From the NCBI GenBank assembly GCA_964016885.1, contig OZ024742.1, forward strand, positions 20,150,001 to 20,214,000: a stretch of DNA of 64,000 bases. The letters are read 5' to 3'. Positions 696-46,826 of the stretch are shown piece after piece; positions within the stretch are counted from its first letter, which is position 1, and each line of letters opens with the position of its first letter. Under the pieces are notes generated by a model. The model did no database searches. It saw only the letters and a list, made by a program, of their open reading frames with translations, and was not told where the DNA came from. The DNA is from Eledone cirrhosa. Taxonomy: Eukaryota. A program made the translations under genes and the position numbers.

Positions 696-1004
696 ATATA
701 TATATATATATATATATATATATATATATGTGTGTGTGTGTATGTATAATATATGTGTATGTGTATGCATATATGTAAATATATATATATATATATATAT
801 ATATATATATATATATATATATATATATATATATATATATATATTAGAATTGGTGCTCTGAAATAGCGATATATATATGAATGTATATATAGTGTATTTT
901 GCAATACACTGTATGCTTAATTAAAAGCATTTTGAAGACCTTACGCTATTGTTTTAAAGTACTGACTATGTCACTTACTTCTATTTTCACCAAACAAGGG
1001 GAGA

Positions 1005-1052
1005 TAAGCTGACAGAGCTCTGTTTCGTACTGTTGGTACTTATCAAAGCCTA
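1005..1052 (-). ncRNA. Type I hammerhead ribozyme, U3-A8 core variant
   Basis: Minus strand: TAGGCT-TTGATAA-GTAC caaca GTAC-GAAA-CAGAGCTCTG-TC-AGCTTA. Stem III is palindromic. Confidence 0.8.
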
Positions 1053-1382
1053 GCACTCCTCCTGTTTGCTGAAAACTATGAATTTTGGATTCTTATCGAA
1101 TTCCAGTAATAATCAGGAACTGATTATACAGAACGGTTGCCGGTCCAGTAAAAATTGAAAATTAGAATTGGTGCTCTGAAATAGCAATATATATATGAAT
1201 GTATATATAGTGTATTTTGCAATACACTGTATGCTTAATTAAAAGCATTTTGAAGACCTTACGCTATTGTTTTAAAGTACTGACTATGTCACTTACTTCT
1301 ATTTTCAGCAAACAGTTCCTGATTATTACTGGAATTCTATAAGAATCCAACATTCATAGTTTTCAGCAAACAGGAGGAGTGC

Positions 1383-1429
1383 TAGGCTTTGATAAGTACC
1401 AAAGTACGAAACAGAGGTCTGTCAGCTTA
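1383..1429 (+). ncRNA. Type I hammerhead ribozyme, U3-A8 core variant (inverted copy)
   Basis: TAGGCT-TTGATAA-GTAC caaa GTAC-GAAA-CAGAGGTCTG-TC-AGCTTA. Confidence 0.8.
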
Positions 1430-1960
1430 TTTCCCCTTATTTGCTGAAAATAGAAGTAAGTGACATAGTCACTACTTTAAAACAATAGCGTAAGGTCTTC
1501 AAAATGCTTTTAATTAAGCATACAGTGTATTGCAAAATACACTGTATATATATATATATATATATATCAGAAGATCCCGTTAAGGGTGAAAGCAGCGATT
1601 CTTTGCTTAAACTTTAATCTATTTTAATATATATAAATATATATATATAATAGGCGGAAATAGAAGTGCTATGCAGAAACGAAATAAATGGAAGTAATAA
1701 TATTCCACAGTAAACAAACAGACAGACCGACAAAGAAAAAAAAAAGGAAGTATCTTTGAAGGAAACATAATACATTAACGGTTATAATCAATTGTAGTTT
1801 TCTATGATATTTGTTTAGTTGAAAGATATAGAGAGCAATAATATACCAGAGATACTTCCTGTTGTGTAAACATGACGTTTATTGTTGGTGTAGGACTGGT
1901 TTTATTGTAAAATGGATAACACGTGATCATGTTTTCTCATAGATTCTACACGTGTATACA

Positions 1961-2103
1961 CTCTCTGAAGACGGCATATATATGTGTTTGGTATGTATAT
2001 TTAATTTTGATAGTTTGTATAATTTTGTATAATTTTGTATATAGATCTGTTGAATATGCATGCCAATTCTAACACATATATATCCTAGAAACGATCGTTA
2101 AAT
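1961..2103 (+). ncRNA. Hammerhead-like motif with long stem II and degraded stem I
   Basis: CTGAAGA at 1965; atatatatgtgtt...aacacatatatat stem; GAAA-CGATCG-TT at 2088-2099. Confidence 0.5.
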
Positions 2104-3228
2104 AATGAACTTTTTTTGTTTAATATAAGGAACTGTTTCATTGTTTTATTCATTATTTTTTTAATATTTTATATATATATATATATATATATATATATAT
2201 ATATATATATATATATATATATATATGTGTGTGTATGTATGTATGTATGTATGTATGTATATATGTATGTATGTATATATATGCATTCGCACATCTAAAA
2301 TCAGGTTTCATACACACGAACAACGCCAACATTCTCTTCCTCACTCACGCAAACTAATGCACACATATGCACATTATGTCACTCTCCCAGTCGCTTTATT
2401 ATCTTTGAACACGAGACCTGACCACGAGAACACAACACGAGACCACAGAAAGGTGTCTGGACATCAAAAATAACAGTTTCCACTTTACCTGAGCGTCATA
2501 CTAATAACTTTGATTATTATCTTACACGGCCTGTTGATGCTATATATATAGGAAAAGAGTCAAGACCCCGACGGCAGAGCTCAAGCCATTTCGACCGCTA
2601 TTTCTGGTCCACTTGGTTCCTTACCACGCTTCCTTCATTATATATATAATGTTAAGGTATCAATACATATTTAATATGTATGATGATCATGTTTCTCAAT
2701 AAATATACCAAATGGACTTTGGTTCAGAGCATCAATTATTTAAATTTAACAGAAAGAATCCTACATCGTTTGAGAAACACAGTATTTTGTACACGTATAT
2801 ATAGATAAAAAAATATACAGGAAAATATACATACTTTAAGATAGTAAATATGTCATTTGTATAAAATGACTTTTTTACAATCTGAAAGTATGTATATTTT
2901 CCTGAATATTATCTGATCTATATTGAATAAGTATTTATATATACATATAGTTAAAATTTACTTACAAACCATTGCACTCTTAAATTCTTTGGTTTGCAAC
3001 TATATAACGGCTTTGTATGATCCTATCATTGCATTGAGCTAAAAGACACCTAGTGAATGAGGAAAATTTACTCTTATTACTATTACTATTATATATATAT
3101 ATATATCACAGAAAAAAGAGAATCAGTGTTGCGACGAAGTGTGTGTGTGTGTGTGTGTGTGTGTGTGTGTGTGTGTGTGTGTGTGTGTGTGTGTGTGTGT
3201 GTGTGTGTGTGTGTATGTATTTGTTTTG

Positions 3229-44000: not shown

Positions 44001-44680
44001 ATCTTCCATTTCTGTGCATTGATGGATGGGCTGATACCTTGTGTATTGAGTAAGAATCTGGAGGCTAGTGTGGTGGCTGGTTTTGACTGTTGCAGAGGCC
44101 TTGTTTTGTGATTGTGTGTTAGTGACAGCAAGGATGGTGTTGGGTGATGGCTGAAATGTTTTTCTCTATCTCTTTTGCCAGATTCATGGCTAAAAAAGAA
44201 AGATTTGTTTTTTTGTTCAGGGAGCAGTTTTTGATTGGATTTGTGGTTACAACATTGGATAGGGTTGCAGTTCCCTCTTTTGTTGTTGTTGTTGTATTTG
44301 TTGTAATTGTGTCTTTGGGAAAAGACTGGAGCAGCATTATTTTTGTTGTTGTTGTATTTGTTGTTGTTGTGATCATGTCTTTGTGACAAGACTGGAGCAG
44401 CATTACATTTGTTGTTTTTGTTGTTGTAATCATGTCTTTGTGAGGAGACTGGAGCAGCATTACCGCAGCAGTGGGTGGCTTTATTGTGGTTTGTGGGTTG
44501 GCATGGAGCCCCTTTTCTGTTCGTGCGTTGTGTCCCAGGAAGATGAGTGAAGGGACAGTCAGTCAGCAGACATAGCCTCTCACGTTGGGAATGTTGGCAG
44601 ATTTTGGGACTGCGACCTATACGTGCGGGCAGCGTGTTTTGGTGATGGCTGGCAGTGTTAGTGCGCTTAGTACCCGGTAA
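41054..44680 (-). mobile_element. CR1-like LINE with APE endonuclease and RT (frameshifted) plus an upstream ORF1-like remnant containing ~57-60-bp repeats
   Basis: LNTQG, LTETHL, GLYRPP, MGDFN, ILDLVF, LSDH; RT motifs as in 37401-39283; repeats at 44300-44460. Confidence 0.9.
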
Positions 44681-44912
44681 ATGTATATATATATATATAT
44701 ATATATATATATATATATATATATATATATATATATATTTCTCTCTCTCTCTCTCTCTCTCTCTCTCTCTCTCTCTCTATATATATATATATATATATAT
44801 ATATATATATGTATATCTATATCTATCTATCTATCTATCTATCCATATATATATATATATATATATATATATATATATATATATATATATATATATATAT
44901 ATATATATATAT

Positions 44913-45216
44913 GTGTGTGTGTGTGTGTGTGTGTGTGTGCGCGCGCGCTGTGTTATGTTGTTACTACACAATATCATCTTAGTAATAACAGGTGTAACAT
45001 TTATCATGTAACATTTATATAATACTGCATATCATACTATAAATGTATACCTGTATATATATATATATATATATACAGGTATACATTTATAGTATGATAT
45101 GCAGTATTATATAAATGTTACATGATAAATGTTACACCTGTTATTACTAAGATGATATTGTGTAGTAACAACATAACACAGCGCGCGCGCGCACACACAC
45201 ACACACACACACACAC
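44913..45216. repeat. Fold-back palindrome centred on (TA)n, with (GT)n/(CA)n outer arms
   Basis: 44939-45053 mirrored by 45076-45190. Confidence 0.9.
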
Positions 45217-45999
45217 ACACACACACACACACACACACACACACACACACACACACACACACACACACACACACACACACACACACACACACACACACAC
45301 ACACACACACACACTCGCTCTCTCAGATATTGAATATTTGCAACAACATAAAATATCGTATAAACAACCTCTTGATGTTTTGCTCTACTATTTAGTTTGG
45401 TACAGCTATATATTATAATAATTTGCCTTCTCTACTATATCGCATGTACACATTTAACCTTTTCTGATAAATATTGATTGGAGTATAAGCAGTAGCAACA
45501 GCACCAACAGCAACAGCTGCAGCAGTGAATCAGTGAAGGTAAAAGTATAGAGTAAATTACTCAGATCGATAGAAGTGTTAAGAGTTGTCCGTTTAGCTGA
45601 AACCAAGCTACAAGGTACGAAGAGAAAAATAACGAATTAATGCTAAGAAAAGCTATAATAAGCAGTAAAAGTAAGGATAAAGACTTCTACAACAGAACCA
45701 CACACACACAACTTAAAGAGGATTGTGGATTTCAGTTCTCTGAAGCTGTTGTATTGCTGTTTGTTGTGAAATAATGTAACAATGTAACAATGCACTATAT
45801 ACTATATAATATATGATATATAATATATTATATATGATATATAATATATAATATATTATATATAATATATAATATATTATGTATTATATATGATATATAA
45901 TATATAATATATGATATATGATATATAATAGAGTTGTAACGCATCCACAAACATGTATAGGCAGGCAACACAAGCTAAAGCAAAATAGTATATATATAT

Positions 46000-46136
46000 A
46001 TATTTATTAAAATAACAGATTAAAGTTTAAGCAAAGAATCGCTGCTTTCACCCTTAATGGGATCTTCTGAAGATCCCATTAAGGGTGAAAGCACCGATTC
46101 TTTGCTTAAACTTTAATCTGTTATTTTAATAAATAT
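46000..46136. repeat. 137-bp palindrome centred inside an HHR core; same family as 1568-1630, 20520-20575 and 62034-62130
   Basis: Centre atcttc-t-gaagat at 46068. Confidence 0.88.
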
Positions 46137-46198
46137 TTGCCCTATATATATATATATATATATATATATATATATATATATATATATATATATATATA

Positions 46199-46826
46199 TA
46201 TCTTCTCCTTTGAGCACATTATTTACAGGGAATAGCGAGGGCCTATGCCTCCGCTAATTTATAGTGATATTTCGCTCCTAATAACAGTCTTTCCTAACTC
46301 TGTTTGGTTGAGCACACTTCTCTGAGTGGCTTTGGGCTGCCCTTTCTAGCAGTTCGTCCTTCAGAGGCCACTGATTCACTGCCCTTAAACACGCTGTGAC
46401 TTCTCTCTCCCACGCGTAGCTGGACAGTCAATTTTAAAATTCTCTTAGTGTTGTCTGAGATGTATAGCCTTACACACGCTGATGAACCGAGGCTAACCCA
46501 TTTCTTTCAACAAATTATTTGTGAAACATATCTTTGGATTAGTGTCTTTGGATTTGTACGTGTGTTATATAGTTATAGAGGTATTTATTTACGCTTTAAT
46601 TTATATTTTTAATTATCGTGTCTATAGTCTGCCTTTCATAGGTTATAGATTCCATACACTGGTGGTTCTTTTCCCTGTTTTATTGATAACACACTGTATA
46701 TCTCACTCTGGTGTGTTACCTTTTCAACATATATATATTTTAAAGAGCTCAGGATCTCTTCTCCTTTGAGCACATTATTTACAGGGAATAGCGAGGGCCT
46801 ATGCCTCCGTTAATTTATCGTGATAT
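46199..46826 (+). mobile_element. ORF-less ~557-bp unit with ~70-bp terminal direct repeat and an HHR
   Basis: tcttctcctttgagcacattatttacaggg at ~46201 and ~46757. Confidence 0.75.
46472..46565 (+). ncRNA. Type I hammerhead ribozyme with weak stem II
   Basis: ACACACG-CTGATGA-...-GAAA-CATATC...GATTTG-TA-CGTGTGT; 7-bp stem I. Confidence 0.7.

Follow-up and report, generated by a model that had tools for sequence, protein, structure and literature searches.

What are the five short, tandemly repeated units without open reading frames (ORFs), each with a hammerhead ribozyme motif, that lie between positions 843 and 46,826 of a 64,000-nucleotide (nt) stretch of Eledone cirrhosa DNA (contig OZ024742.1, positions 20,150,001 to 20,214,000; the whole stretch is referred to as the window), and which machinery inserted them? 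The window is animal-type DNA of 36% GC, rich in (TA)n, in pieces of LINEs (long interspersed nuclear elements), and in PLEs (Penelope-like elements). The five units (U1 to U5) are probably short, non-coding, hammerhead-bearing and non-autonomous passengers of PLEs, copied into (TA)n by PLE reverse transcriptase (RT) and endonuclease in trans. Marks of PLE insertion (partial tandem, inverted arm, tail, and fixed ends) were observed on these non-coding hammerhead units, and U4 is a diverse multi-copy family; we infer the mobilisation in trans by PLEs, the priming in (TA)n, and the initiation at two sites.

Anatomy and hammerhead motifs of the five units

Self-BLAST of the window returned an A-B-A′ partial tandem, the form of a pseudo-long terminal repeat (pLTR), in all five units, each at the place and with the period given in an earlier note on this DNA. 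Unit ends were placed by eye at the microsatellite border, which defines the cut-to-end distances.

U1: repeats 843-996 and 1161-1314, period 318; direct part 843..1314, minus strand, 1.48 copies; the 3′ end borders (TA)n at about 843-845, and the 5′ end is found 15 nt below the predicted cut
U2: repeats 32833-33142 and 33427-33736, period 594; 32833..33736, plus strand, 1.52 copies; 75-79 nt from the second predicted cut down to the 3′ end
U3: repeats 35342-35679 and 35902-36240, period 560; direct part 35347..36240, minus strand, 1.60 copies; 198 nt from the predicted cut down to the 3′ end
U4: repeats 39566-39642 and 40049-40125, period 483; 39566..40125, plus strand, 1.16 copies; the 5′ end is 5 nt below the cut predicted in the preceding period, and 75-81 nt lie between the cut and the 3′ end below it
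U5: repeats 46198-46270 and 46754-46826, period 556; 46198..46826, plus strand, 1.13 copies; 3′ end 265-268 nt below the predicted cut

The unit lengths were thus 318-594 bp with a GC content of 0.34-0.42 (below 50%), and with 1.13-1.60 copies per locus, full-unit arrays of at least two copies were not found at these five loci. Doubled monomers contained no Met-started sense ORF of more than 55 amino acids (antisense maximum 84), and tblastn with 22 ORFs of the window gave no match to the units below an E-value of 0.19. TA-rich runs stand beside all five units, in agreement with the earlier note, but they are weak evidence of low specificity here, because 10% of the window is pure (TA)≥6 and a LINE fragment (ca. 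37400-39284) is TA-flanked as well.

The A and A′ copies were 92–99% identical, differing at 2/154 (U1), 9/310 (U2), 3/334 (U3), 6/77 (U4) and 3/72 (U5) positions. All six U4 differences fall within a 12 bp A/T run (40070-40081), and at the five places listed A carries the base found in other copies. An assembly artefact at the (TA)n boundaries is most improbable: repeats between long microsatellites are hard to assemble, but A and A′ differ at 2–9 positions, and the joint between the U4 periods occurs in independent reads and contigs (see below).

The units had been described as unrelated to each other, which was too strong. In pairwise alignments U3 and a relative of it at 47021..47579 were significantly similar (z 48), U3 and U4 marginally so (z 3.5), and all other pairs without significant alignment, whereas the sequence CATTGAACCAC was common to U3, its relative, and U4 at positions cut+101 to +108. 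A 13-mer common to 35293 and 39931 was judged to be a chance match. As a lead only, a 16-nt motif with the core TKGTYGAG was seen at 33316 (U2), about 35880 on the minus strand (U3), 39756 (U4) and 46298 (U5), i.e. at cut+200 to +301, and could be a shared promoter or binding site; the motif is borderline, as 3 of 60 shuffles scored as high in one of four settings tried, and k-mer counts were not above those of the shuffles.

Hammerhead motifs were searched with a type I descriptor (C3-G8 or U3-A8 core, stem I of at least 4 bp), with 400 dinucleotide shuffles per unit as control. The predicted motifs were the following.

1005..1052, minus strand: U1, type I with U3-A8 core; stem I has 6 bp, stem II 4 bp, and stem III is palindromic; cut predicted after 1011
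1383-1429, plus strand: inverted arm of U1, by descriptor
32979..33068, plus strand: U2 copy A, with U3-A8 core; the stem II region is long and stem III palindromic; cut predicted after 33063
33573..33662, plus strand: U2 copy A′; predicted cut after 33657
35540..35621, minus strand: U3, variant with UU cut site, a C/A left unpaired at the foot of stem II, and a palindrome as stem III; predicted cut after 35545
36101..36182, minus strand: U3, second motif one period upstream; predicted cut after 36106
39964..40048, plus strand: U4, type I, canonical core; predicted cut after 40044
46472..46565, plus strand: U5, type I with canonical core; stem I has 7 bp, and stems II and III are weak; cut predicted after 46558

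At motif level, each unit carries a candidate type I hammerhead. The claim of one hammerhead per period held for U1, U2, U4 and U5, which matched the descriptor when 0, 0, 1 and 0 of their 400 shuffles did; the U3 motif was missed by the descriptor, spotted by eye, and retrieved after stem II had been loosened (post hoc, without shuffle control). The cores of U1, U2 and U3 are variants: the textbook core was present in U4 and U5 only, and that of U1 and U2 read UUGAUAA (the U3-A8 type). U2 and U3 contained two same-sense hammerheads one period apart, while the direct parts of U1, U4 and U5 contained one. A U3-A8 core, an unpaired base at helix II, and a palindromic helix III are described traits of PLE hammerheads (PMC4209133, used here in excerpt, as are all papers cited). 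Helix II extensions of 37–59 nt in U2 to U5, and the extra unpaired A before GAAA and the UU cut site in U3, set the units apart from the PLE variants of that excerpt.

For the U3 motif, comparison with its 72%-identical relative showed 3 of 12 pairs changed on both sides, with 40 of 40 cells paired, on the basis of two independent sequences only; by eye, stem I was one pair longer on both strands in the relative than in U3. No hammerhead family was among the 150 of 179 Rfam matches listed, which consisted of miRNA-like hairpin noise. In local partition-function folding, the active hammerhead was not the favoured structure of the units (stem III closing pair ≤0.33); the test is uninformative, because four PLE control motifs failed as well (≤0.01). 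Exact-pattern scans returned no match for the U4 and U3 motifs in metagenome contigs, for the U1 motif in viral contigs, or for the U2 motif in prokaryote genomes.

Inverted arms, tails and 3′ ends

Two of the units, and the relative of U3, carry an inverted 5′-truncated arm with a one-sided tail, a feature absent in U2, U4 and U5; the arms of U1 and U3 were unmentioned in the earlier note.

1310..1565, plus strand: inverted arm of U1, reverse complement of 869-1125, 26–46 nt shorter at the outer end (tail asymmetry)
36240..36368, plus strand: inverted arm of U3, ending at the first initiation-like site, about 117–122 nt short of the end of the direct arm
47021..47579: relative of U3, 71–75% identical, an inverted pair with hammerheads at 47328-47410 (plus strand) and 47072-47154 (minus strand)

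The inverted arm and tail of U1 and U3 are the inverted-pLTR-plus-tail anatomy of endonuclease-bearing (EN+) PLEs (PMC8557442; PMC3846280). Both 3′ termini of U3 and of its relative are at the identical two sites, and U4 ends at a site homologous to the first of these, and thus the ends are fixed and not permuted. The earlier note had the copies as permuted partial tandems, which does not hold where insertions are comparable; the comparison rests on U3, its relative and U4, as U1, U2 and U5 are single copies. For the Anolis PLE PAc, reverse transcription in vitro starts at two internal sites below the hammerhead, the tail being the stretch between them (PMC11167929), and the fixed two-site 3′ ends fit such an initiation by analogy.

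All nine 3′ ends of the units and the U3 relative lie 57–265 nt below a predicted cut, a range overlapped by the 39–154 nt of the nine ends in the ORF-linked PLE families of the window. Beyond its end site, the B segment of U4 matches the U3 tail (CATTGAACCAC at cut+108 in U4 and at +101 in U3). Since B opens with homology to a tail, it reads on naturally past the start site and is not the product of a chance jump.

This anatomy also bears on a duplication at the DNA level, by which (TA)n-flanked pLTR stumps would have been duplicated in tandem or by unequal crossover after insertion, as in satellite birth (10.64898/2026.07.22.740005). The microsatellite-rich, unstable context and the close identity of A and A′ would suit this origin, as would the state 40067 C, which A and A′ of U4 share unlike most other copies. 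It is nevertheless very unlikely: a duplicated stump would read A-A instead of A-B-A′ with B past the 3′ end of the insertion, the inverted arm and tail directly adjoin the tandem in U1 and U3, and the U4 joint is common to different organisms.

U4 as a multi-copy family

One period of U4 (39636-40118), the only unit so tested, was compared with 4 of 11 public runs listed for it; none of the 11 is RNA, and they say nothing on expression. The four comprised contigs of organism A (X1), raw reads of a restriction-site-associated DNA (RAD) library from another sample and study with the same species label (X9), contigs of organism B (X4), and a run of organism C (X5).

In X1, 1,379 contigs covered all 29 bins of the period, with 332 contigs at 99% identity or more, 409 at 95–99%, 419 at 90–95%, and 219 below 90%. 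All 29 bins were covered as well by 2,442 reads in X9 and by 10 contigs in X4. The joint at which the sequence goes back by 483 bp was present in six X1 contigs (four variants of the junction letters), nine X9 reads (two starts), and one X4 contig. U4 is therefore a diverse multi-copy family, the 483-bp joint of which recurs in another sample and in another organism. As the short period is a property of the family, U4 is not a one-off pLTR fragment. The copy number is probably in the hundreds, depth not being a copy number, and family status is what we infer for U1, U2, U3 and U5.

Among the 40 of 145 U4 differences displayed, none falls in the catalytic core, and two common differences improve the ribozyme motif, namely 39963 T>A (fifth pair of stem I) and 40039 G>T (loop III). 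Of 247 loose ends 19 were displayed; the interior ones among them that agreed well were, by eye, diverged versions of the U4 unit, and a few single-contig ends in X4 and X5 continued into other sequence. X5 gave a single 110-nt piece at a depth of 2.3, which matches 39855-39964 without difference and then runs into other sequence; it may be contamination or a truncated copy and was set aside. Pile-ups of X9 read ends at 39656, 39775, 39867 and 39937 were rejected as real ends: all are on AATT sites (4 of 7 such sites), and are thus artefacts of the restriction library. No pile-up of X9 read ends at the cut site was listed, and a RAD library is not expected to show one.

Partner elements, template and known systems

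The earlier note had placed the donors of the units in the same window. PLEs with five ORF remnants linked by tblastn (21493-23175; 27142-29838, with inverted arm; 51508-52850; 53919-54598; 57252-59352) do occur there, and four of the five have hammerhead motifs of their own.

20955..23175, minus strand: 5′-truncated PLE with RT and GIY-YIG, of Neptune/Nematis type by its CX4CxxC linker motif; hammerhead at 21071-21109, with 121 nt from the cut down to the end
25468..32195: degenerate PLE, CxCX5C linker (Hydra-like by motif), direct and inverted arm, hammerheads 25614-25668 and 32080-32134
53110..55681: 3′ portion of a Hydra-like PLE with inverted arm, hammerheads 53235-53305 and 55573-55643
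24863-25228: plain stump of the same family as the PLE at 53110-55681

Judged by linker motif, one PLE is of Neptune/Nematis type (CX4CxxC), while CxCX5C or something close to it marks three others as Hydra-like, and the Hydra and Neptune clades are reported to favour (TA)n (PMC8557442). Among the 120 relatives listed for the ORF at 21493-23175, the named eukaryotic sources were bivalves, with at most 61% identity where most of the query was covered, which is taken to mean only that it is an aquatic-invertebrate-type element. The PLEs of the window are plausible partners by type; a link to the units in DNA similarity is absent inside the window.

Several further PLE-like pieces were seen. The Hydra-like PLE tails at 25468-25563, 60465-60563 and 53110-53197 are about 85–95 nt long (usually quoted 30–40 nt), and in the stretch 25668-27142 a 150–180 bp insert (ca. 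26367-26553) also occurs at 10426-10576. Long, near-perfect palindromes between (TA)n runs at 270-720 and 23393-23950 are likely inverted PLE stumps; the latter contains a degenerate hammerhead-like motif of the U3-A8 type, and a piece resembling 270-400 stands after U4 at about 40204-40407. A family of 60–110 bp stumps with a hammerhead-like CTGAAGA...GAAA start and a TA-rich end (1567-1649, 20531-20594, 45989-46158, 62038-62141) includes one palindromic pair and has a non-canonical cut triplet; one copy adjoins U1 and one adjoins U5. Elsewhere, 6963-9657 is (ACC)n-rich with three long stop-free frames (605–896 amino acids) rich in Thr, Pro and His, either a degenerate trinucleotide array or a mucin-like exon; a LINE with a 904-amino-acid RT frame lies at 12413-19420 as three diverged, partly overlapping head-to-tail pieces with (ATCT)n between them; a C2H2 zinc-finger frame follows a LINE RT fragment at 49023-50467 (minus strand); and no tRNA was found in the window.

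Several observations weigh against PLE passengers as the identity of the units. At the DNA level, the units are without a match among the ORF-bearing PLEs of the window, no target-site duplication is readable in the (TA)n flanks, and the relative of U3 has no partial tandem. In the public data, no listed piece spans the whole U4 period, and X1 may be the window's own sample. Furthermore, the summed X1 depth is 10–30 times higher at the hammerhead and tail ends of U4 than in mid-B; this may be due to a more abundant relative sharing only the pLTR, or to divergence of the window copy in mid-B, and in X9, a library biased by restriction sites, the gap is mostly 1.5–3 fold. Finally, about 1.5 kb separates the ORF end from the hammerhead in the Hydra-like PLE (25668-27142), and hence an ORF-less unit of 0.3–0.6 kb may still be a plain 3′ fragment in the cases of U1, U2, U3 and U5.

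In such an explanation, 0.3–0.6 kb of the 3′ untranslated region (UTR) of autonomous PLEs would have been copied, followed by a jump and restart, or else a parent would have lost its interior in a rare deletion, the short periods being one-off events. The window does contain stumps of this kind (24863-25228; 59752-60563), one of its 3′ UTRs being longer than 1 kb; the U3 relative amounts to an inverted stump only, and X1 covers the pLTR-like ends of U4 at a much greater depth. As an internal contrast, however, these ORF-linked stumps have no short-period A-B-A′ tandem, and the B segment begins with tail-homologous sequence. The U4 joint recurs in another sample and organism, with mid-B itself diverse and multi-copy, and it would be uneconomical to assume five accidents within 64 kb that all lack a link to the five ORF remnants of PLEs. 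Plain fragments are therefore an unlikely explanation for the set, and a possible one for U1, U2, U3 and U5.

For passengers mobilised by PLEs, the following cycle can be proposed. A transcript longer than one unit would be made, and a PLE protein would nick (TA)n and start cDNA synthesis at a fixed internal site 57–122 nt, or at a second site 166–265 nt, below the cut; the ends are observed, and their use in initiation is suggested by the Anolis work (PMC11167929). The polymerase would then cross the intact ribozyme on an uncut multimer or a re-ligated circle, and stop after 1.1–1.6 periods, an anatomy that is observed. Priming from the opposite nick at the other site would give the inverted arm and tail that are observed in U1 and U3.

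As the cDNA must cross the cut site, the template would be a multimer that stayed uncut, a circle closed by re-ligation, or a monomer with a precise template jump as the bridge. The earlier note had proposed reverse transcription around a circular monomer; in such a model, a ribozyme-made, ligase-closed circle would be copied 1.1–1.6 times round by the PLE polymerase. In its favour, the two same-sense hammerheads one period apart in U2 and U3 are enough for monomer release, every insert crosses an intact cut site, and a circle would explain how 1.x-mers avoid erosion; retrozymes of coral, mussel and axolotl form circles (PMC7229834). Circular monomer folds were more stable than 25 dinucleotide shuffles (z −5.2, −6.4, −5.0, −3.0 and −2.5 for U1 to U5), but such stability is expected of any hairpin-rich retroelement RNA and is not specific to circles. 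Against a circle, the 3′ ends are fixed and not permuted, and none of the five inserts reaches two full copies. The Anolis PLE PAc uses uncut RNA in vitro, and insertion is normal when its ribozyme is mutated (PMC11167929); among Xenopus dimers, 8 of 9 were uncleaved (10.64898/2026.07.22.740005).

The 5′ ends lie +5 (U4) and +15 (U1) nt below the cut, and at +196, +364 and +427 nt in the other three units (a post hoc comparison with n=5). A circle gives no reason for the stops at +5 and +15, and a linear RNA that the ribozyme has cut at its 5′ end fits these two ends no less well. A circular template is possible but not required, because an uncut longer transcript yields the same insert. An uncut or partly cut linear multimer is tentatively favoured as the template, and the circle is regarded as possible but doubtful.

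The units resemble animal non-LTR retrozymes (PMC7229834; 10.64898/2026.07.22.740005) in being non-coding, with a GC content below 50% and one predicted type I hammerhead per unit, as well as in head-to-tail arrangement, PLE co-occurrence, and perhaps a stable predicted circular fold. Their lengths are within the 51–972 bp of Li et al. (10.64898/2026.07.22.740005), while the 150–450 bp of Cervera (PMC7229834) are exceeded by four of the five, U1 alone being inside. Unlike retrozymes, which range from dimers to 62-mers, the loci hold 1.1–1.6 copies, and the ribozymes look like PLE-type variants; in the excerpts of the two retrozyme papers, inverted arm, tail and fixed 3′ ends were not found reported.

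With EN+ PLE insertions (PMC8557442, PMC3846280, PMC11167929) the anatomy is identical (pLTR partial tandem, inverted 5′-truncated copy, tail, and (TA)n), the hammerhead lying upstream of fixed 3′ ends at a distance of tens to some hundreds of nt, and pLTRs are known from the same literature to mobilise intervening sequence in trans. In contrast to EN+ PLEs, the units have no ORF between the repeats and a period of 0.3–0.6 kb instead of several kb, and the U3 tail is about 120 nt long instead of the usually quoted 30–40 nt. Chlamys PLEs such as MRC1 (PMC8557442) are likewise non-autonomous PLE passengers with pLTRs and head-to-tail insertions, but they belong to a green-algal clade, are mostly without hammerheads, and generally have a 3′ end similar to the autonomous partner, a similarity not found for the units within the window.

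Since two full units are not reached at these loci, and cleavage and circular RNA are putative, the units are filed as PLE-mobilised elements and not as proven retrozymes. The best reading is that they are new families of hammerhead-bearing, non-autonomous, PLE-mobilised elements, a class published as animal non-LTR retrozymes, which have been considered non-autonomous PLE derivatives from PLE pLTRs (10.64898/2026.07.22.740005). Both the class and the circle hypothesis are already published, a circular template for PLE tandems having been proposed in 2014 (PMC4209133) and PLE mobilisation of retrozymes in 2020 (PMC7229834), and the surprise is modest. In the published excerpts used here, the mobilisation of animal retrozymes by PLEs rests on co-occurrence and pLTR similarity (PMC7229834; 10.64898/2026.07.22.740005); these loci contribute marks of the insertion site that are carried by ORF-less monomers, namely an inverted arm, a tail, and start sites that are fixed.

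It is a rather speculative possibility that at least five families of circular-RNA parasites are present in one animal genome, cut by their hammerheads, closed to circles of 0.3–0.6 kb, and copied by a PLE polymerase from a fixed internal start, their inserts bearing the complete PLE signature of partial tandem, inverted arm and tail on monomers without an ORF. If true, this would give direct evidence, from the genome, that PLEs mobilise retrozyme circles, and would provide a small system for settling the origin of PLE partial tandems. With short monomers and a multi-copy U4, the position of 5′ ends relative to the cut site could test circle against uncut multimer against template jump, a question since at least 2014.

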